This document shows positions 49,230-61,175 of a stretch of DNA of 61,237 nt, piece by piece. The notes under the pieces were generated by a model. It saw only the letters and a list, made by a program, of their open reading frames with translations, searched no databases and had not been told where the DNA came from. The stretch's first letter is position 1. Each line of letters opens with the position of its first letter. The position numbers and the translations under genes are program-made. Where the stretch lies: IMG/VR virus record IMGVR_UViG_3300042939_000506, positions 1 through 61,237 of that record; one strand, 5' to 3'. The DNA is from a virus (lineage: Duplodnaviria > Caudoviricetes).

Positions 49230-50930
49230 TTACCGGCTGGTGACCGGCAAACCCCCACGTCCGTCGGTAACTTTCCTGGTCAACCATCCCGGCGTGTCGC
49301 GGCCTCCACGATGCAGAGGAGAGGCGTAATTTGCCATCCCCGCCCCCAGCTTGTCCAGGCGGTCATGAGCGATCACCGCCGCGCTCACCCTGTCCGGGCA
49401 GTGCTGCCCAGCCTGCCAGTCGGCAGCCTGGTCGATGAACACGCTCATGATGTGCGGCACCACGCGGGCACGTTTGGTTTCCAATGCCTGCCGCAGACCG
49501 GCAGCCCTCCCCACCGGATCACCGCCGGCAGTCCACTTCACCGTCATGAACGGCGGTGTCGGGGACAGCGCACGCTGCTCGACCTCCGACAGGGACTTGC
49601 CTGTCGCCAGCTTCTCCCGCGCCTTCTTGTGCATCGCCCCGTAGGCGTGCTTGACCACCGCCGCATAGGTGGTGAACGTGGCGAAACCTTCCAGAGCGAT
49701 CTCCCTGGCTCCCAACCGCAAAGCCAGATCGACAGCCTTCTGCGCCCACTGCTCGGAGGTGTAAAGCCCAGACACGTCGTCGGTGAACACGATGGAACCG
49801 TCCCCACCCAGGACCGCACCCAGGATGCCGGTCTCATCCCCCTCACCGGAGTCGGCGGGATCAACCCCCACCACAGCGGCGACCGGGTAGTCGGGGAACG
49901 GAACCGGAGGATCGAACCAGGCACGCTCAAAGAGCCCACCGGCAGGGTTGGTCGGCATCCCCTGGTACAGCGCGTACCAGACACGCTCACCGACCTGGCG
50001 GCGGGTCTGCTCAAACTCCTGCTTGCTGCGTCGGCGAGCCGACACCATCACCGTGCCCGGTTTCCGGTTCAGCGCGTCCGGCACACCCTTCTCCGAGATC
50101 GCCGGAATGTTCAGGTAACGCCAGGTGCGCTGCTCCTTGGGCAGTTCGGCCTCAGCCGCCATCACCTTTCCGGCCAGATCCTCCGGGTGCCAGCGAGTCT
50201 GAATGAGGATCATCGACGCTTCCGGCGACAGGCGGGTCATGGCCACCGACGCCATCCACATGTCCACCTTCTCCCGGTGAGTCATGGAGTCGGCTTCCTG
50301 CATGTTCTTGTACGGGTCGTCGATGATGAACAAGTCGGCGGGACGCCCGGTGATCGCCGACCCCAGGCCGACGGCCACCAGACCGCCTTTCGCGTTGTCG
50401 ATGCGCCAGGCGTCAATACGGCGGGACTTGGAGGACAGTTTCAACCCCAGCTTGTCCTCGACGCGAGCCCCGGTCATCGGGTCGATCACGTCGGTGCCGT
50501 GCGCCTCGATCACCGACCGGCAGTTGGTGGAGTGGGTGTGCGCCAGATCGTCGCCGTAGGAGGCCAGAATGATGCGTCGGTTCGGGTTCAACTGCCAGGC
50601 CCGGATCGGAGTCCACACCGCGCACAGAGTGGACTTGCCTTCCTGCGGTGGCATCGTGACGAGCAGGTTGTGGCGAGGCTTGCTCAGCGTCTGCTCGATG
50701 GCATCCGCGATGGTCTGCAGGGCCGGGGTGATGTGGAAGTCGGGATCAACAGCGGCGGCGATCTCGGCGGCGTTGCGGTACTGGGTGCGGATACGTTCGC
50801 GGGTCGCCGCGGATTCCAGGTACGCCAGAATCGCGGCTTTCTGCTCCGGGGGCCAGCCTTTCGTTTCCTCGTAGATCCGGGCGACTTGATCGCTGGAAAA
50901 GGTGCCGTCTAGCGGCGGTAATGAGGCCAT
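49230..50930 (-). CDS. terL: Terminase large subunit
   Basis: MPPQEGKS, FIIDDPYK, IQTRWHPEDL, ALYQG, VGVDPA, PDRVSA. Confidence 0.95.
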   Translation of the reverse strand: MASLPPLDGTFSSDQVARIYEETKGWPPEQKAAILAYLESAATRERIRTQYRNAAEIAAAVDPDFHITPALQTIADAIEQTLSKPRHNLLVTMPPQEGKSTLCAVWTPIRAWQLNPNRRIILASYGDDLAHTHSTNCRSVIEAHGTDVIDPMTGARVEDKLGLKLSSKSRRIDAWRIDNAKGGLVAVGLGSAITGRPADLFIIDDPYKNMQEADSMTHREKVDMWMASVAMTRLSPEASMILIQTRWHPEDLAGKVMAAEAELPKEQRTWRYLNIPAISEKGVPDALNRKPGTVMVSARRRSKQEFEQTRRQVGERVWYALYQGMPTNPAGGLFERAWFDPPVPFPDYPVAAVVGVDPADSGEGDETGILGAVLGGDGSIVFTDDVSGLYTSEQWAQKAVDLALRLGAREIALEGFATFTTYAAVVKHAYGAMHKKAREKLATGKSLSEVEQRALSPTPPFMTVKWTAGGDPVGRAAGLRQALETKRARVVPHIMSVFIDQAADWQAGQHCPDRVSAAVIAHDRLDKLGAGMANYASPLHRGGRDTPGWLTRKVTDGRGGLPVTSR

Positions 50931-51010
50931 AAGACACAGGCTAGGGATACACCGTGCCAAACCGGGAGTTGATAAAATACCTCCACAAGACTGCATTATG
51001 AAAGGGCACG

Positions 51011-51463
51011 ATGGGACTGTCGAACTACAACGGATTCTCAGGCAAACTCCGCGAAGCCAGCCTGCGCCGCGTCCACAAACTCTGGGCCAGCGGCGAAGTA
51101 CCCCGCCCTGTCAAATGCGATGCCTGCTACCAAACCGAAGGCACCATCCACGGCCACAGCGAGGACTACAGCAACGACCACATCCACCTGCCGCTGTGCA
51201 TCACTTGTCACCTGCTGCTGCACATGCGCTGGCAGATGCCGAACATGTGGGAGGACTACAAGCTCGCCGTCCGGTCAGGATTCCGTGGCCGGCCCCTGGA
51301 ACAGAAGAACGCCCTCTACGTCATCAAGAACATCTACCCCGACGAAATGTACCAAGACGCAAACTACATCAACGACGAACGCTCAGCCACCGTCCTCGAC
51401 ATGATCTGCCCGATCAAGTTCATCCACCCCAACTCCATCGGATTGGGAGGAAACGATGACTGA
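51011..51463 (+). CDS. HNH-like zinc-binding protein
   Basis: CDAC...HGHSEDYS...LCITCH; GAAAGG RBS. Confidence 0.75.
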   Translation: MGLSNYNGFSGKLREASLRRVHKLWASGEVPRPVKCDACYQTEGTIHGHSEDYSNDHIHLPLCITCHLLLHMRWQMPNMWEDYKLAVRSGFRGRPLEQKNALYVIKNIYPDEMYQDANYINDERSATVLDMICPIKFIHPNSIGLGGNDD

Positions 51464-51671
51464 CCTACGCACCCGTATCGCCGCCATCCTTTCTTCCAAA
51501 GAGGTTGTCCTCGACGGTGACTACATCAACCGGGAGTGCGCTTGGCTACTGGCCGACGCGGTGATCCAAGAACTAGGGCTGCAAACACACCTGGCGAAAC
51601 GCATCATCAACGGAAAGCCGGATCAACGTGTGCGCCGCCATGTGACGGATTGGGAGATTGTCAATGAGTGA
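51456..51671 (+). CDS. Small hypothetical protein (paralog of next gene)
   Basis: DLRTRIAA...LADAVIQELGL...HVTDW. Confidence 0.7.
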   Translation: MTDLRTRIAAILSSKEVVLDGDYINRECAWLLADAVIQELGLQTHLAKRIINGKPDQRVRRHVTDWEIVNE

Positions 51672-51846
51672 CCTCCGTGAGCGGATCGCCGCCGCTGTTG
51701 TGGAGAAGCTGTCCAAACGGCGGGATGGGCGCGTGGAGTTCTCGCCTTATGACGTGGCCGACGCGGTGATCGCGGAACTGGGTTTACGCCAAGAAACCGT
51801 TGGCCTCATCCACCGCTGGGTCACCGACTGGAAGGCCGACGAATGA
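51664..51846 (+). CDS. Small hypothetical protein (paralog of previous gene)
   Basis: DLRERIAA...VADAVIAELGL...WVTDW. Confidence 0.7.
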   Translation: MSDLRERIAAAVVEKLSKRRDGRVEFSPYDVADAVIAELGLRQETVGLIHRWVTDWKADE

Positions 51847-52490
51847 CCGCGCAACTGGAACTGTTCACTCCCGCCCAACTCACACCCGCAGGCCCGGCCT
51901 ACGAACGCGAACGGTACTGGGGTATCGCCATTTGCCACCCCGGCGGCTGGGGACGAGACACCGACGAACCCACCGACACCTGCCGCCCCACCCTCCTGTC
52001 ACTGGACATGCGCTGCAACTGCTGGAACCGCCGCGGCGAAGAACGCTGCCAGTGCGTCGGCTACTACCTGTTTCGGGGTTCCTGCCGGGGGTGCAGCTGG
52101 TACGGCCCCGCCCGCACCAGCGAAGACGCCGCCGTCTACGACACCCACGACCACTGCTACCCCGGCTGGCGAGAACTGCCCGTCATCATCGGCCCCATCC
52201 CCGAAACCGGCAGCGGCAAAAAAGGCACAAGCATCGACTCCTTCATCGCCCGGCTGGAATCCATCGGCTACCCGCCAGGATGGATACAGGCCGGTGGACC
52301 CATCCGCGAACGCCGACAACAAGGCGGCACCCGCGCCCACACCGTCCACACCGGATACGGCAACTACACCATCTGCGGAGAAGTGGTCGGCTGCTGCCTG
52401 AGCATCGGCATGAACAGCTGCGAAGGACTGGACCGCTGCCTCACCGGCAGATGCACGCCCTACGAGTTCCCCGATCAGGAAATCGAGTAG
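51843..52490 (+). CDS. Cys/His-rich hypothetical protein (DUF6349-like)
   Basis: CRGCSWYGPAR.SEDAAV.D.HDHCYPGWRELP; GPIRERR..GTRA. Confidence 0.7.
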   Translation: MTAQLELFTPAQLTPAGPAYERERYWGIAICHPGGWGRDTDEPTDTCRPTLLSLDMRCNCWNRRGEERCQCVGYYLFRGSCRGCSWYGPARTSEDAAVYDTHDHCYPGWRELPVIIGPIPETGSGKKGTSIDSFIARLESIGYPPGWIQAGGPIRERRQQGGTRAHTVHTGYGNYTICGEVVGCCLSIGMNSCEGLDRCLTGRCTPYEFPDQEIE

Positions 52491-52858
52491 ACCAGCCGCG
52501 AAGCACCATGCTGCGTCGGACCCCGGTCCTCAAACCCGGCCCGTAACGCCCAGCGTTTGTCCCACGACAGAATCTCCACTTCCTTGAACCGGGCACTGAC
52601 CGCGTACTGCAGGCACGCCTGAGACACCTCGTCCCCCAACCCCATTCCGCGGAAATCCGGCCTCACCCAGACAGCCCGAATCCGGGCCTTCGTCGAACTC
52701 ACCGGAGCCACCCCCGCAAAACCGGTGATCCGGCCCTTGGAGTTGACCGTCTTGAACCACACGCAATCCTTCACCTGGGTCACGTTCACCCGCTCCTTCG
52801 CCGCAAGAGCGGCGAAAGGAGCGATCTCCTTCCAGGTGGCCCTCTCCACCGCCATCAT
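52475..52858 (-). CDS. GNAT-family acetyltransferase
   Basis: RIRAVWVRPDFRGMGLG (motif A), RAGF. Confidence 0.88.
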   Translation of the reverse strand: MMAVERATWKEIAPFAALAAKERVNVTQVKDCVWFKTVNSKGRITGFAGVAPVSSTKARIRAVWVRPDFRGMGLGDEVSQACLQYAVSARFKEVEILSWDKRWALRAGFEDRGPTQHGASRLVYSIS

Positions 52859-53400
52859 TCCGCCTTCGGATACCAAGCTTGCGAATACGCCCACTTGTTG
52901 ATGCTGCGGGCACTGAACACGCCCTCCTGGGCGAGCAGATCCACTTCCTCCTTGGTGCCGCCGATCTCGGCGGCGATCACATCACGCGCCACACCGTGCT
53001 CTTCGATCAGCTCCCGCACAATTGCGCTCATCTCCACCGCGATATGCGACCCCTTGGCCCGGTTGATCCGAATCGTCATCAACATCGCCGTGGGCCGGTC
53101 CACATCTAGCACCGCCACCGGAACCCGGCCCTTCCAACGAGCCCGGATTCGATCACTGTCCTGACTCAACCGCCATCGGTGAAACCCGTCGATGATGAGC
53201 CGGTCGGGGTTGACCAGCAACGGCTGCAACCACCCGGTAGACAGCACGCTCCGCTCAAGCAACCGCAACTCTGCAGCGTGCACCCGGTTCGGATTCCAGG
53301 TGTTGGGGTCGAGGGTGTCTGCCGGCACCCATCGGATGTGGTCAACGGGATCTCCCTCCGCAGCATCCAAACGGGGCAACCCCGCCGCGTTCACCGTCAC
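52855..53400 (-). CDS. IbrB-like ParB/sulfiredoxin-fold protein
   Basis: DPVDHIRWV..LDPNTWNPN, GWLQP, IIDGFHRW, TIRINRAKGSH. Confidence 0.88.
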   Translation of the reverse strand: MTVNAAGLPRLDAAEGDPVDHIRWVPADTLDPNTWNPNRVHAAELRLLERSVLSTGWLQPLLVNPDRLIIDGFHRWRLSQDSDRIRARWKGRVPVAVLDVDRPTAMLMTIRINRAKGSHIAVEMSAIVRELIEEHGVARDVIAAEIGGTKEEVDLLAQEGVFSARSINKWAYSQAWYPKAE

Positions 53401-54491
53401 GACGCCTTCTCCTTACGGGCCTGCTGCTGAGCAACACTGAGCGCGGTGATTGCTCGCTTATAAGCACCCGCCATGAACTGACCCAACACGTAATCCGGCG
53501 GGTACGAGTCGGGGGTTTCCACCGCCTTGGACCGCACATGACCCAACTCTTTGAGAGCCTTGGCACGCTGCACCTCGTCGTCGATGGTGTCCTCCACCCA
53601 CGCCTGCACCCCGTCATAGGACTGCCCGTACCGGGCGAACATGCCCGCCCGGTCCAGTTCGTGGTAGTACCGCTCCTGCACCGCCATTTCGGGGAACAAC
53701 TGCAGCAACTGGTCGTAGAACACCGGGGCGTAAGCCCTGGTGTTACCCAGCCGTTTAGCCCGCTCCGCGTGCAGCGGGGTCGACACCCGCAACGGCTCCT
53801 TGCTCAGCAGCTGCGAGTCATAGATCGGGCAGTAGCGGATGTCCCGGTCATAGAAGTACCGGAACACATCGTTCTCCTGCCAGTCGAAAATCGGCTTGGC
53901 GGTCATCACCCGCTTCTCGGCGGTGGTGTTGATGTAGTTCTCCGTCAGCTTCGCGGTCATCGCCCGAAACCGCATCAGCGACTCCGCGGCCCGGACCCCC
54001 GTCACGATGGCGACCTTGCCCTTCTCGTCACGGGCAGCCAGAGTGTCCATCGTGTACTGATCCAGCACCAGACGCCGATCCAAACACAGCTTCTCGGAGG
54101 TCAACGCGAAATCGGGGATCGGGCGCAGATGAGGTCGATCCGGGTCCCACTGGATATAGCGGGTCGAGGTCCCCAGAATGTACTTCGTCGATTCCAGCGG
54201 CACGCAGTACCACCGCATGTCGATCCAGTCCTTGCGGCGGTACTCGTCAACGAAATCCACCACCGCGTCCGGTATCAACTCCTCATCGCGGAACACCACC
54301 TTCACCGGGCGGCGGTCCCCCCGCTCCAACGCCACCTCACGCGCCAGATGCAACGTCACCAGCGAGTCCTTACCCCCGGAGAACGCCACCAGCACCGAAT
54401 CGAACACGTCGTAGATGTGGTGCATCCGCTTGACCGCCTCGGTCAGCACATCAGAGTCGATGAACCCCTTCACATGCTTGATCCGTTTCAC
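53397..54491 (-). CDS. IbrA-like PAPS reductase-family (PP-loop) protein
   Basis: VAFSGGKDSL PP-loop, FRDEE, GVRAAESLMR, PIFDWQENDV. Confidence 0.9.
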   Translation of the reverse strand: MKRIKHVKGFIDSDVLTEAVKRMHHIYDVFDSVLVAFSGGKDSLVTLHLAREVALERGDRRPVKVVFRDEELIPDAVVDFVDEYRRKDWIDMRWYCVPLESTKYILGTSTRYIQWDPDRPHLRPIPDFALTSEKLCLDRRLVLDQYTMDTLAARDEKGKVAIVTGVRAAESLMRFRAMTAKLTENYINTTAEKRVMTAKPIFDWQENDVFRYFYDRDIRYCPIYDSQLLSKEPLRVSTPLHAERAKRLGNTRAYAPVFYDQLLQLFPEMAVQERYYHELDRAGMFARYGQSYDGVQAWVEDTIDDEVQRAKALKELGHVRSKAVETPDSYPPDYVLGQFMAGAYKRAITALSVAQQQARKEKAS

Positions 54492-54625
54492 GGCAAACGG
54501 CCCTCATCGACCAGGTGCTGCACGATCCGGCAGGACAGCGCATAGGACTCAGCCGGCGTTCCGTAGGCGTGTTCAAGGAAATACATGTCGACCACGACCT
54601 GCACCGCCCGGATCGTGTCGAGCAT
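54488..54625 (-). CDS. 45-aa hypothetical protein (not in ORF track)
   Basis: MLDTIRAVQVVVDMYFLEHAYGTPAESYALSCRIVQHLVDEGRLP; GTGA coupling to IbrA-like gene. Confidence 0.5.
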   Translation of the reverse strand: MLDTIRAVQVVVDMYFLEHAYGTPAESYALSCRIVQHLVDEGRLP

Positions 54626-54642
54626 GTCATCGACCCCGCCCA

Positions 54643-55302
54643 TCACATCACCGACGCGATGTAGTCACACAGACGTTGCGGCATTGTGGAGTCGGGGTCC
54701 TTGCGCTTCAACCAGCCGATGAAGTCGGTCCACACCTTCTTCTGCTTCTCATCGTCGAACACGATGGAGTAGCTGATGATTGACTGGCCGCGGTTGTTGA
54801 TCGGTTCCTCGTCATCATCGTCACCGGACAAATCGTCAATGTCCACGGTCACCGGCTCAGGCACCGACAGCAGCGCATCCAGATCCTCGGCGGTGTAGCC
54901 CAAACCGGTCAGATCGTCGGACACGTCAGAAAGCAGCGAAGCCAACTCCTTGTTGTCGTAACGGCCCTTCTCAGCGGTGCGGTTATCAGCCAGGACGATG
55001 CGTGCCGCCTGGTCCTCATCCACATCGACCCAATGCACCAGGATCGCGTTCCACCGCTCATCCTCAGGGTGGCGTTGCGCCAGCTGACGGAACGCTTTCA
55101 ACGTGTGGTTACCCGCCAGAACCTCAAACCGCCGCCCGGTGTGCGTCCCGATATTGGCCACAATCGGGCGGTACTGGCCGTGAGCCTTGAGGCTCGCGGC
55201 CACCGCCCCCACATTCCCCCGGCGCGGGTTACGACCGTAAATCCGCAGCGCCGACGGTGCCACAGACGAGGTTGTTTCCGGTGTCACATCGGTGTCAGCC
55301 AT
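54643..55302 (-). CDS. ParB-like protein
   Basis: RNPRRGNV..SLKAHGQYRPI, EVLAGNHT, RIVLADNR. Confidence 0.9.
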   Translation of the reverse strand: MADTDVTPETTSSVAPSALRIYGRNPRRGNVGAVAASLKAHGQYRPIVANIGTHTGRRFEVLAGNHTLKAFRQLAQRHPEDERWNAILVHWVDVDEDQAARIVLADNRTAEKGRYDNKELASLLSDVSDDLTGLGYTAEDLDALLSVPEPVTVDIDDLSGDDDDEEPINNRGQSIISYSIVFDDEKQKKVWTDFIGWLKRKDPDSTMPQRLCDYIASVM

Positions 55303-55979
55303 CAGACCCGGCTCCCCTCGGTCTCATTCAGGTGGGAAACCACCCGTTCGGCCAACGTCAAATCCGGGTCCGGGTACTGGTCCTTCAACCACTTCACAAA
55401 CGCGAACCACATCTCCTGCTGCGGCTCGTCGTCGAAGGTGATCGTGAAGCTGATCGCTGACTCCGACGCCGGCCCCAACACCGGAGGTTCCAACTCCGGG
55501 TCCTCCTCAGGAGGCTCGACATCCGGGGCGGCGGGACGGTCCAACGTCGCTTCCAGAGCATCCAGGTCAGCGTCGGAATACCCGGTGCCGGTGGTGCCGA
55601 CCTCACCCAGCAGCGCGACCAGAGTGTCGGTGTCGAACTCACCGGCATCGAAGCTGCGGTTGTCCACCAGCACGATGCGGGTGGCCATGTCGTCATCCAC
55701 ATCGACCCAATGCACCGCCACATGAGCCCACCGCTGATCGAACGGGTTCTGCTCAGCCAGGTCGCGGAACGCCTTCAGCGTGTGGTTTCCGGCCAGCACT
55801 TCATTCGGTCTGCCGGTGTGCGTCCCGATGTTGACTACCAGCGGCTTGAACTGGCCGTTGGCTTTCAGGGAACCGGCTATCGCATCGACATCCCCGATGC
55901 GGGCGTTGCGGTGAAACACCGACAGTTCTGATGGTTTGACGAGCGTCGTGGTGCCGACAAGCGGCGAGGTTGAGGCCAT
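55302..55979 (-). CDS. ParB-like protein (paralog)
   Basis: RNARIGDV..SLKANGQFKPL, EVLAGNHT, RIVLVDNR; start reset to ATG 55979. Confidence 0.9.
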   Translation of the reverse strand: MASTSPLVGTTTLVKPSELSVFHRNARIGDVDAIAGSLKANGQFKPLVVNIGTHTGRPNEVLAGNHTLKAFRDLAEQNPFDQRWAHVAVHWVDVDDDMATRIVLVDNRSFDAGEFDTDTLVALLGEVGTTGTGYSDADLDALEATLDRPAAPDVEPPEEDPELEPPVLGPASESAISFTITFDDEPQQEMWFAFVKWLKDQYPDPDLTLAERVVSHLNETEGSRV

Positions 55980-56044: not shown

Positions 56045-56101
56045 TAGACAATACCTGCGGGAGTCTGTATTATCAACAGACCAGGCAGGGAAACACCCGC
56101 C
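56045..56101 (+). promoter_or_regulatory. Promoter TAGACA-17-TATTAT plus AGGCAGGG...CCCGCC leader
   Basis: Hexamers at 56045 and 56068; leader at 56083; GAAAGGA RBS follows. Confidence 0.8.
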
Positions 56102-58759: not shown

Positions 58760-59036
58760 CCGCCCAGAATAACAATGGCGTAACCACTCTGCGTTATCGA
58801 ATTAGCTGAACCCGGCAAAAAACTCGGGGAAAATAACGAAGGCGGGAGGCATTGTCGTTTTCCGATTTCACCGAAAAACTGCGGGTCGGGCGACTGCTGT
58901 GGTTCCCGAGAACAGTGGCTCCCTGGGGACAGGGTTCTGGCCTACTGTGGTCAGTGTGAGTGAGTTCAGGTTTGCCAGTCCCCTGCCTGGGGACACCTGT
59001 CTTCTGCTGTCTCACACCCCACTGAGAGGTTTTACT

Positions 59037-59555
59037 ATGTCCAACTTCATCTCCCAGACCACTGTTGCTCCTTACAGGGCTCATGTGGCCTCTGTCATCT
59101 GCCCTGCCTATGGGTGGGACTTCCTGCAGGTGGCCACCACCACTGACACCCTTACCAAAGATGGTGAGGTGGTCACTCTGGTCTGGGGTGCCAACAAGCT
59201 GCTGAGCTTCTCCTCCACTGCAGGGTTGGTGGTTGATGGTCAAGCCCCCTGCAAATTGCAGAAACTGACCAACCTGCTGGCAGGTTCCAAAGTCATGGGA
59301 GAGACTCCAGATTCCATCTGGGCCAGCCTGCCTGCTGGCCACCCTGCCAAGTTGGGGGCTAAGGCAGCACTGAGGGCCAAAGCTGCAGAGATCCTGGTGG
59401 ACATGCTGCCTGCAACCTCAGCTGTTGATGCTGAGATTGCCAAGCTGGAGACTCCTGCTCCTGCCAAGAAGGCTCCTGCCAAGAAGGCTCCTGCCAGCAG
59501 GAAGGCAGGCAGCAAGGTGGTTGCTGCCACCACCCTGGAGGACATGGGCTTCTAG
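59037..59555 (+). CDS. 172-aa hypothetical protein with PAKKA (histone H1/HupB-like) tail
   Basis: GAGAGG RBS at 59024, ATG 59037; PAPAKKAPAKKAPASRK; only three Arg, all AGG. Confidence 0.8.
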   Translation: MSNFISQTTVAPYRAHVASVICPAYGWDFLQVATTTDTLTKDGEVVTLVWGANKLLSFSSTAGLVVDGQAPCKLQKLTNLLAGSKVMGETPDSIWASLPAGHPAKLGAKAALRAKAAEILVDMLPATSAVDAEIAKLETPAPAKKAPAKKAPASRKAGSKVVAATTLEDMGF

Positions 59556-59569
59556 CCTCACCTCCCAGC

Positions 59570-59597
59570 AGCCCCACCCCCACTGGGGGTGGGGCTT
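59570..59597 (+). terminator. Hairpin after the CpG-free gene
   Basis: AGCCCCACCCCC-ACT-GGGGGTGGGGCT; short U tail. Confidence 0.7.
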
Positions 59598-59727
59598 GCT
59601 GCTGTCTGCAGCAGGAGCCGGCTGCACCCACGAACACGGAGGCGGGGGACGAGAGCGGGTGCCGGCGGCGGGGGCGGTGGCGGGACGCCACCCGGACGGA
59701 ACGACACCCGGCCCCGGCGCGGTCGGT

Positions 59728-59763
59728 CGGGCGGTCGCCCGGGCGGTCGCCCGGGCGGTCGCT
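59728..59763 (+). repeat. 12-bp tandem repeat x3
   Basis: CGGGCGGTCGCC CGGGCGGTCGCC CGGGCGGTCGCT. Confidence 0.9.
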
Positions 59764-59888
59764 CCGCCCCACGCCCCGCCACTCGCACGACCGTCCGGTC
59801 GGTGTCGGGGTGGGTGTGCCGCGGTGTCGGGGCGGGGTCGGGCGGGGTCGGTGACGGCCTCCCACGCCCCTCCATCCGCAAACGAACA

Positions 59889-59988
59889 AAGTCGAGGAAA
59901 GGCGCCCCGAAACCTACCGTGACCTGGCCGTTCCCACTAGGCTGGCCTTAGGCCAGCAACCAAGCGGGCCTGAACGAGAGGAAACGAG
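59889..59988 (+). repeat. About 100-bp promoter/RBS repeat, copy 1
   Basis: AAGTCGAGGAAAG..ACCTACCGTGACCTG..TAGGCTGGCCTTAGGCCAGCAACCAAGCGGGCCTGAACGAGAGGAAACG. Confidence 0.9.
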
Positions 59989-60246
59989 ATGAGCGGATCA
60001 CAGCCGTTGTGGGTCGTGGAGGCCCGTGCCCAACGTGCCTTCGACATGGCGGTGCGGCTGATGCGTCAGGGCGACAAGGAGACGGCCACAACGTGGCTGC
60101 TCGAATGGTGCGACCTGCACGACCGGGTGAAGGCGTTGAAGGCCGAGGAGGAAGCGGCCAGCAAGCGGCGGCGCAAGCAGTTCGCCCTGGCCGCTCAGAT
60201 CGGGCGGTGGCAGAGCGAGCAGAACGAGGAGGTGACGGGCAGCTGA
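59989..60246 (+). CDS. Small helical hypothetical protein
   Basis: GAGAGGAA RBS inside the repeat. Confidence 0.75.
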   Translation: MSGSQPLWVVEARAQRAFDMAVRLMRQGDKETATTWLLEWCDLHDRVKALKAEEEAASKRRRKQFALAAQIGRWQSEQNEEVTGS

Positions 60247-60312: not shown

Positions 60313-60413
60313 GAAGTCGAGGAAAGTCGCCCCGGCACCTACCGTGACCTGCACGTTCCCAGTAGGCTGGCCTTAGGCCAGCAACCAAGCGGGCCTGAAC
60401 GAGAGGAAACGGA
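60313..60413 (+). repeat. About 100-bp promoter/RBS repeat, copy 2
   Basis: Near-identical to copy 1; the TAGGCT...GAGAGGAAACG part is identical. Confidence 0.9.
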
Positions 60414-60641
60414 ATGATCGAGATCACCCGGAGGAGCCCGCTCAGTGGCGACCTCCACACGATGACCATCGACGCCACCAACGAGCAGTTGACGGCGTTC
60501 CTGTCGGGCGTGAAGGTGCAGGACGCCTTCCCGCAGGTGAGCCCGGAGGAGCGTGAGTTCATCCTGACCGGGATCACCCCCGCCGAGTGGGAAGCGATGT
60601 TCGACGGGTCCAGCGAGGTTGAAGTGGACTTCGCGGAATGA
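60414..60641 (+). CDS. Small conserved phage hypothetical protein
   Basis: RRSPLSG..HTMTID; VQDAFPQVSPEEREFILTGITPAEW; RBS inside repeat. Confidence 0.8.
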   Translation: MIEITRRSPLSGDLHTMTIDATNEQLTAFLSGVKVQDAFPQVSPEEREFILTGITPAEWEAMFDGSSEVEVDFAE

Positions 60642-60804: not shown

Positions 60805-60959
60805 ACGGTGAGCGTCCCTCCGGGGACGCCACCCCACCCGACGCCGACCGACCGCACGAAGTCGGAACAAGTCGCCCGTCTGACTACCGGAAACCTGCCG
60901 TGACCTGGGATGATGGTGTTGGCCAGGAAGAAGCCGGGCCTAAACGAGAGGAAACGAGA
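60805..60959 (+). repeat. Hairpin plus diverged promoter/RBS repeat, copy 3
   Basis: GGTGAGCGTCCC..GGGACGCCACCCCACCCG matches 60250-60285; ACCTGCCGTGACCTG; GGGCCTAAACGAGAGGAAACGAG. Confidence 0.8.
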
Positions 60960-61175
60960 ATGACGGAGAATACCGTGACGTTGACCAAGAGCCAGGCCAA
61001 GGCTCTTGCCGAGGTGATTCGGTCTGAGGTCGAGCGTGACGCCCTGCTCGGCTGGATCGACAAGGTCGTTGCCTCCGGCCTGATCCCGTCCAAGACGGTC
61101 GTCCACTACGACCTGGGCGTGCTGCCCGGTGAGGAGTACGAGGACATCGTTTGGGACGAGGAGGACGAGGACTGA
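60960..61175 (+). CDS. Small acidic hypothetical protein (71 aa)
   Basis: RBS inside repeat; ends GEEYEDIVWDEEDED; followed by hairpin GTGCCGGCCCACC..GGTGGGTCGGCAC. Confidence 0.75.
   Translation: MTENTVTLTKSQAKALAEVIRSEVERDALLGWIDKVVASGLIPSKTVVHYDLGVLPGEEYEDIVWDEEDED

Follow-up and report, generated by a model that had tools for sequence, protein, structure and literature searches.

The virus record IMGVR_UViG_3300042939_000506 (Duplodnaviria; Caudoviricetes), analysed here as one window that takes in the whole record of 61,237 bp at 62.6% GC, carries a compact six-gene cassette encoding two ParB-like proteins, a small open reading frame (ORF), a PP-loop enzyme resembling IbrA, a ParB/Srx-fold partner resembling IbrB and a GNAT acyltransferase. 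The reading we favour, at a probability of roughly 0.45, is that the cassette modifies phage DNA covalently, on the base or the backbone, in a reaction that depends on ATP and acyl-CoA. The cassette is a member of a widespread IbrA/IbrB-type phage kind that is already annotated in GenBank as "ParB-like / PAPS reductase-like" (PAPS, 3'-phosphoadenosine 5'-phosphosulfate). New here are the modelled contact between the IbrA-like and IbrB-like proteins, the natural IbrB-GNAT fusions, the case against sulfur chemistry, and a negative comparative test of a proposed link between the cassette and CG dinucleotides.

Organisation and distribution of the cassette

The six closely coupled genes that the first-pass annotation had reported at 52475-55979 are all present on the minus strand. 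In the order of transcription, followed by the two promoter-like sites on their 5' side, they are:

55302-55979, minus strand: ParB1, 225 aa from ATG, ParB N-domain-like with a conserved small C-terminal domain; phrog_723 at 5.5e-63
54643-55302, minus strand: ParB2, 219 aa, paralogue of ParB1; phrog_723 at 3e-61
54488-54646, minus strand: small ORF, 52 aa, with a 4-nt overlap at either side
53397-54491, minus strand: IbrA-like PP-loop ATP pyrophosphatase, 364 aa; PF01507 at 9.9e-18, phrog_2302 at 5e-127
52855-53400, minus strand: IbrB-like ParB/Srx-fold partner, 181 aa; phrog_2159 at 5e-79
52475-52858, minus strand: GNAT acyltransferase, 127 aa, its ATG start lying in an ATGA that overlaps the IbrB stop; PF00583 at 4e-9
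56048..56076, minus strand: promoter-like site TTGATA-17-TATTGT before ParB1, a consensus match only
56045-56073, plus strand: promoter-like site, back to back with the preceding one in the same divergent gap

The genes overlap at all five junctions, by 1, 4, 4, 4 and 4 nt (TGATG, GTGA and ATGA types). On the 5' side a 140-bp gap parts ParB1 from divergent genes, which run on the plus strand from 56120 onward. The promoter scan returned 3 sites in 9.2 kb against 1.8 +/- 1.5 in shuffled sequences, and its calls are hints only. The cassette is a self-contained, translationally coupled operon, read leftward from the divergent promoter region near 56050 and separate from the terminase operon.

A tblastn search with the PP-loop enzyme matched 225 of 50,697 phage records; in 85 of the 225 the match spans at least 80% of the enzyme. 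The hosts concerned include Flavobacterium, Mycobacterium, Streptococcus, Arthrobacter and Bacillus. Gene neighbourhoods were examined at 28 loci ranging from 33 to 72% GC, namely Mycobacterium phages prophi79-1 and Phayeta and 26 IMG/VR loci. In every one of the 28, the PP-loop gene is closely flanked by a ParB1/2-like gene on its upstream side and by an IbrB-like gene on its downstream side. Because this trio is kept throughout, ParB, the PP-loop enzyme and the IbrB-like protein are, judged by conservation, the core of the cassette, and the remaining genes are accessory. Small ORFs come and go among the loci at the site of the 52-aa ORF; that of the window has no tblastn relative at any of them, and its only Pfam match (DUF5946, E=0.009) lies below the cut-off.

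The IbrA-like PP-loop enzyme

The PP-loop enzyme matches PF01507 with 65.2 bits (cut-off 22.5), as do all members of its family (21/21). The family alignment used 21 of 27 usable sequences, five near-duplicates of loci L003/L005 and one of L018 having been left out. In it the SGGKDS PP-loop is invariant in 21/21, as are many Arg, Lys, Asp, Trp and Tyr positions, and the adenylation chemistry proposed in the first-pass annotation is a fair reading of this motif. A single cysteine is near-invariant, C221, with Ala in its place in one sequence of the 21 (L026). In the predicted structure (mean predicted local distance difference test, pLDDT, 85.7), residues 1 to about 230 form a PAPS-reductase-type fold whose nearest solved relatives are the PAPS domain of FAD synthase, TtuA/NcsA, CysD, CysH and TilS, at 11-17% identity. 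The C-terminal third is helical and without a match to any family or solved fold, and a sequence search of the PDB returned no solved close relative of the enzyme (best E 0.0098). The canonical phage family phrog_424 is matched over the PP-loop domain only.

Both parts of the enzyme's usual naming need care. A PAPS/APS reductase proper of the CysH kind was considered and rejected: TIGR02057, TIGR00434 and TIGR02055 score 25.6, 24.5 and 16.6 bits against cut-offs of 254, 165 and 235, and all NCBIfam models are likewise missed widely. Because the CysH models are missed by so much, "PAPS reductase" denotes a fold here and not a function. As for the label "IbrA", the PP-loop domain and the neighbouring ParB-like partner bear it out, but the DUF3440 domain of true IbrA (PF11922) was detected in none of the 21 family members at E<=0.1 and nowhere in the window genome, in a search that was positive in three control genomes. 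The label is therefore one of likeness in architecture and neighbourhood, not of strict membership.

The IbrB-like partner and the predicted complex

The IbrB-like protein falls just short of the ParB_N family (PF02195, 24.9 bits against a cut-off of 26.3) and matches ParB chains in the PDB at E=0.002-0.04. Its relatives are 45-83% identical over the whole GC range, and the motifs NPN, DGFHR, RxNRAKGxH and a C-terminal YSxxWYP are invariant in 20/20 sequences. When the IbrA-like and IbrB-like proteins were modelled together, three runs gave ipSAE values of 0.79, 0.79 and 0.80, while the best of three controls scored 0.23; the score expresses the model's own confidence and is not a measurement. 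Of 80 solved complexes, 58 reach this mark, as do 2 of 110 mismatched pairs; these counts are approximate, since our own alignments were used. Contacts agreed by at least 93% between runs, and the pLDDT of the partner was at least 77. The modelled interface sets IbrB residues 160-181, within which the invariant tail lies, against residues 4-18 and 178-228 of IbrA, among them several that are invariant. Judged by sequence, no like complex is present in the PDB. The models support binding between the two proteins, and the predicted contact through an invariant tail offers a handle for a direct test.

Linkage of the GNAT acyltransferase to the pair

The acyltransferase is a clear member of Acetyltransf_1 (PF00583, 37.2 bits against a cut-off of 20.7); its comparison with Mom of phage Mu, a DNA modifier of GNAT fold, is an analogy drawn in the first-pass annotation. 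Searching the 50,697 phage records with it gave one match only, gp8 of Arthrobacter phage Kovu at 32% identity, where the gene order is ParB (gp5), PAPS-reductase-like protein (gp6), ParB (gp7), acetyltransferase (gp8), small terminase (gp9) and large terminase (gp10). Of six ORFs scanned directly downstream of IbrB at other loci, two are GNAT proteins: that of L020 is 28% identical to the window GNAT over its full length, and that of L026 is a weaker match. In addition, IbrB and GNAT are fused, again in this order, in three of five longer IbrB relatives (P0004-P0006). The IbrB portion of P0004 has 57% identity to the window IbrB, and the GNAT portion resembles the window GNAT at E=8e-7. Natural gene fusions are strong evidence that the GNAT shares a pathway with IbrB, and they tie a step that would use acyl-CoA to that pathway. 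The grouping of the GNAT with the PP-loop/ParB genes, made in the first-pass annotation, is thus upheld by the same slot in Kovu, L020 and L026 and by the fusions, and the GNAT is a genuine part of the cassette. Elsewhere the slot holds an annotated methyltransferase (prophi79-1) or a further ParB_N protein (L028). A weak GNAT relative, L030, was set aside as an unrelated GNAT, no cassette being nearby.

The paired ParB-like proteins

ParB1 and ParB2 share about 49% sequence identity. Neither has a Pfam match at E<=0.01, ParB_N included, and both match phrog_498, the ParB domain of phage DNA methyltransferases (ParB1 at 1e-17, ParB2 at 6.5e-26); the PADLOC model MTase_II is weakly matched as well, at 2.9e-6. 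In the PDB, the ParB2 model (mean pLDDT 83.7) has structural matches to ParB, Noc and KorB N-domains, with E down to 9e-7 and TMq about 0.48, while the PDB holds no solved close relative of ParB2 by sequence search. The conserved Arg of the G-x-x-R box belongs to the nucleotide box of CTP-binding, partition-type ParB. At this site ParB1, ParB2 and their close relatives have G-N-H-T, compared with G-H-G-R in the low-GC relatives. The doubling of ParB is limited to a prophi79-1-like group of seven loci and L012.

The upstream ParB-type proteins also have in common a small C-terminal domain, I.Y.I.FD...Q..W..F...LK..YPD..T.AER, in which F182, Q187 and L198 are invariant in 19 sequences from phages of 33-72% GC. 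No solved structure was matched by this domain.

Proposed mechanism and alternatives

Gene order, coupling, family membership, conservation, fusions and the modelled contact together suggest the following scheme. The core would act as an enzyme of two proteins. In it the PP-loop ATP pyrophosphatase would form an AMP ester with an oxygen of the substrate, either in a base or in the backbone, and so activate that oxygen. The ParB/Srx-fold IbrB-like partner would be held to the enzyme by its invariant YSxxWYP tail and would also recruit the GNAT, which is encoded separately here and fused to IbrB in other phages. ParB1 and ParB2 would most likely place the enzymes on DNA. Displacement at the AMP-activated oxygen would follow, with acyl transfer in the forms that bear a GNAT. 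The modification could be made during replication or before packaging, and its purpose may be to blunt host nucleases. We infer DNA as the substrate because ParB1 and ParB2 are of the type that is fused to phage DNA methyltransferases, because the accessory slot can hold a methyltransferase, as in prophi79-1, and because DndB and DpdB are known ParB-family proteins that work with DNA-modifying enzymes (PMC10853773 and PMC12839542, in the portions available to us).

Several points weigh against this scheme. PP-loop enzymes also act on tRNA, small molecules, sulfate and FMN, and the nearest folds of the window enzyme span enzymes of all four kinds. To our knowledge, the sole published phenotype of IbrA/IbrB is the activation of prophage genes. 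A search for longer, fused forms of the IbrA-like enzyme that could name a substrate found none, which is weak evidence. ParB1 and ParB2 may, from their sequences, have lost nucleotide binding, since Thr replaces the Arg of G-H-G-R. The number of promoter calls is not above chance, and the complex score has the limit given above. In E. coli, the ybdNM pair is surrounded by metabolic genes, and no function is assigned to it in the accessible portions of PMC9068703.

A regulatory or non-DNA role, either as an activator of late or prophage genes through ParB-like DNA binding or in the modification of tRNA, other RNA, protein or a small molecule, is unlikely but deserves to be taken seriously. An activator function is implied by the name IbrAB, the cassette lies on the border just ahead of the late genes, a common place for late activators, the ParB-fold transcription regulator KorB is among the fold matches of ParB2, and the tRNA enzymes TtuA, NcsA and TilS are among the nearest folds of the PP-loop enzyme. 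However, an invariant catalytic PP-loop with a GNAT attached favours an enzyme pathway over a pure DNA-binding switch, the three to four ParB-fold proteins of DNA type in the cassette point to DNA, and Pfam scans recognised no tRNA-binding domain. Rather less probable is a helper in packaging, in which one or more of the ParB-like proteins would replace the small terminase in recognising the pac site and the enzymes would process DNA ends. Such a role would suit the finding that no recognisable small-terminase gene lies next to the window large terminase, whose adjacent genes are on the opposite strand; the IbrB-like gene of Phayeta adjoins the terminase, again with no small subunit annotated there, and a window-like terminase is found downstream of the cassette at 12 of the 28 loci. 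Against it, a small terminase is annotated in Kovu alongside the full cassette, opposite-strand genes part the cassette from the terminase in both the window and prophi79-1, and a conserved ATP-activating enzyme together with an acetyltransferase would not be expected of a small terminase.

The first-pass annotation had also drawn a link to DndC and SspD, which did not survive comparison. That a PAPS-reductase-like enzyme of Dnd, Ssp or BREX type 4 character phosphorothioates the phage DNA is a reading to which we give hardly any credence, even though the enzyme weakly resembles DndC (PDLC02661/2 at about 1e-6; TIGR03183 at 8.9e-6) and BrxP (PADLOC, 3.1e-10, N-terminal 70 residues only), and DndB is a ParB-family protein in the available portions of PMC10853773. 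For the DndC equivalog TIGR03183 the score is 24.8 bits, far below the cut-off of 290.4, and the cysteine pair that the same portions give for DndC contrasts with the single near-invariant C221 here. No cysteine desulfurase, DndD or DndE was recognised among the 40 window ORFs scanned with Pfam, although the host could supply a desulfurase. Sulfur insertion is unlikely because the conserved cysteines are lacking, and their absence narrows the chemistry to be sought for the modification that we propose.

Genome setting and the terminase region

The window comes from an uncultured phage whose hosts are high-GC bacteria. By sequence search, its capsid and terminase genes resemble those of Gordonia and Mycobacterium phages. 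The capsid gene has about 80% identity with Gordonia phages, and prophi79-1 has 72% DNA identity to the window in the terminase region. Further proteins encoded in the genome are a family A DNA polymerase, a primase-polymerase/helicase, a superfamily 2 (SF2) helicase and a lysin. The features between the cassette and the large terminase are:

49230-50996, minus strand: large terminase
50995-51023, minus strand: terminase promoter-like site TCGACA-17-CATAAT, a 10/12 match, whose end coincides with the first base of the terminase ORF as listed
51011-52490, plus strand: block of four genes encoding an HNH-like protein of 150 aa, proteins of 71 aa and 62 aa, and a DUF6349 protein (PF19876 at 1.4e-32)

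The terminase has the same orientation as the cassette, as had been noted from the outset, and is not adjacent to it. Because four opposite-strand genes intervene, the two do not form one operon, and the terminase has a promoter-like site of its own. Since that site ends at the first base of the listed ORF, the real start of the terminase is probably a later ATG, for example 22 codons in. The DUF6349 gene converges on the GNAT end of the cassette with a 16-nt overlap. In prophi79-1 an HNH gene likewise lies on the opposite strand beside the terminase.

A CG-free transcription unit

Some 3 kb from the cassette lies a stretch of 712 bp (58907-59619) that has 59% GC and 63 GC dinucleotides but not one CG. 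Elsewhere in the genome CG-free gaps reach 46 bp at most, and no other dinucleotide is such an outlier. The stretch consists of 129 bp of upstream sequence, a 172-codon ORF (ATG at 59037, stop at 59555) and a terminator-like hairpin after the stop. Searches with its protein, which ends in AKKAP repeats, brought up only two relatives, P0002 and P0003, and a 3.2-kb locus, L029; the protein had no match in the phage records, viral_contigs or metagenome_contigs, no Pfam or PHROG family and no usable Atlas match. L029 is 95% identical to the right end of the window and keeps a CG-free stretch of 707 bp. Inside the stretch, 86 of 706 aligned positions (12.2%) differ between window and L029, compared with 17 of 326 outside it (5.2%), and because none of these changes creates a CG, selection maintains the stretch. 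Among four DNA runs examined, the L029-type allele recurs in contigs of X7, X13 and X18, and in X2 one contig joins the cassette and the CG-free gene without a difference from the window.

The first-pass annotation had proposed that the cassette and the CG-free gene form a two-part system, the former writing a mark, possibly at CG, on packaged DNA and the latter being exempt from it. The exemption could, for example, allow the gene to be read first after entry. We regard this system as very improbable. In its favour, the unit is real, close to the cassette, contiguous with it in the X2 contig and kept by selection, and Pfam scans of 30 other window ORFs revealed no other candidate DNA-modifying enzyme. 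The comparative evidence is negative: the 28 cassette loci contain no relative of the CG-free protein; those at high GC have CG-free runs of 99 bp at most, the longest falling in a promoter gap; and in the complete genome of Kovu (60,393 bp), which has a GNAT-bearing cassette, the longest is 115 bp. Nor is CG depleted in the window, with an observed/expected ratio of 1.03 in the whole genome and 1.11 in the cassette. Relatives of the cassette may mark motifs other than CG. The fuller form of the idea, in which a GNAT-bearing cassette writes a bulky ATP- and acyl-CoA-dependent mark at CG and the 712-bp promoter-to-terminator unit stays unmarked and readable at entry, is to be given very little weight.

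The CG-free unit is best read as a phenomenon separate from the cassette, and a host-side or RNA-level reader of CG is, in our view, the likelier cause of the avoidance. It recalls the site-free first-entry DNA of phage T5 and its relatives, in that selection keeps a short word out of a short stretch although the rest of the genome has it at the normal rate. It differs from that DNA in that its word is a dinucleotide, CG, and in that its 712 bp make up one transcription unit. A literature search on CpG avoidance in phages, judged by its listing, turned up nothing on a single CG-free gene. As a clean case of selection against a dinucleotide in one gene of a high-GC phage, the unit merits separate study.

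Directly after the unit the composition changes abruptly at 59619/59620, and 59620-59870 has about 76% GC and short tandem repeats, among them CCCGGGCGGTCG in 4.1 copies (59713-59762). Further on, a 107-nt element occurs in three direct copies (59889-59995, 60314-60420 and 60859-60965; 100%, 92% and 62% identity to the first), spaced by 425 and 545 nt. Since each precedes a small plus-strand ORF, the copies may be repeated regulatory or start-associated sequences.

Comparison with known systems

The IbrA/IbrB-type pair is among the commonest enzyme sets of tailed phages whose chemistry is still to be worked out, and literature searches, with supplementary files outside their scope, found no paper on the mechanism or chemistry of IbrA/IbrB-type or ybdN/ybdM pairs. 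In E. coli, IbrA/IbrB of the ECOR-9 island and the K-12 paralogues YbdN/YbdM pair a PAPS-reductase-type PP-loop protein with a ParB-like protein, as here; for YbdN/YbdM the neighbour is described as a ParB-like nuclease-domain protein in the available portions of PMC9068703. YbdN and IbrA carry DUF3440 whereas the window family does not, a separation made by domain content.

The DndB/DndC and DpdB/DpdA systems also set a ParB-superfamily protein beside a DNA-modifying enzyme. DndC is, like the window enzyme, a PP-loop enzyme of PAPS-reductase type, but the window enzyme is without the cysteine pair described for DndC in the accessible portions of the source, and DndA, DndD and DndE were not found among the window ORFs scanned. 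The transglycosylase of the DpdA/DpdB 7-deazaguanine system is absent from the cassette. The likeness to both systems is one of logic and not of membership.

The closest counterparts are in cultured phages. Mycobacterium phages Phayeta and relatives (genes 1-4) and prophi79-1 (genes 92-97) and Arthrobacter phage Kovu (genes 5-8) have the same order of ParB, in some cases a small ORF, PP-loop enzyme and ParB. Identity to the window is 62-75% for the IbrA-like and 78-83% for the IbrB-like proteins of the mycobacteriophages, and 54% and 64% for those of Kovu. The records of these cassettes give domain names only, with the function uncharacterised. The genome of Kovu (PQ184785.1; L031/L032) is circularly permuted, and its genes 96-98, annotated as a gamma-glutamyl cyclotransferase, an amidoligase and a glutamine amidotransferase, directly precede a double-ParB gp1 and the cassette, a hint of a larger amide-forming pathway around the same core. 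Phayeta has a single ParB, no GNAT and, unlike the window, a cassette that adjoins the terminase. In prophi79-1 the ParB gene is doubled as in the window, with an annotated methyltransferase instead of the GNAT. Kovu has the GNAT right after IbrB, as in the window, and a small terminase annotated between the GNAT and the large terminase. Cultured carriers of the Kovu and Phayeta types make the question of what the cassette does directly testable.

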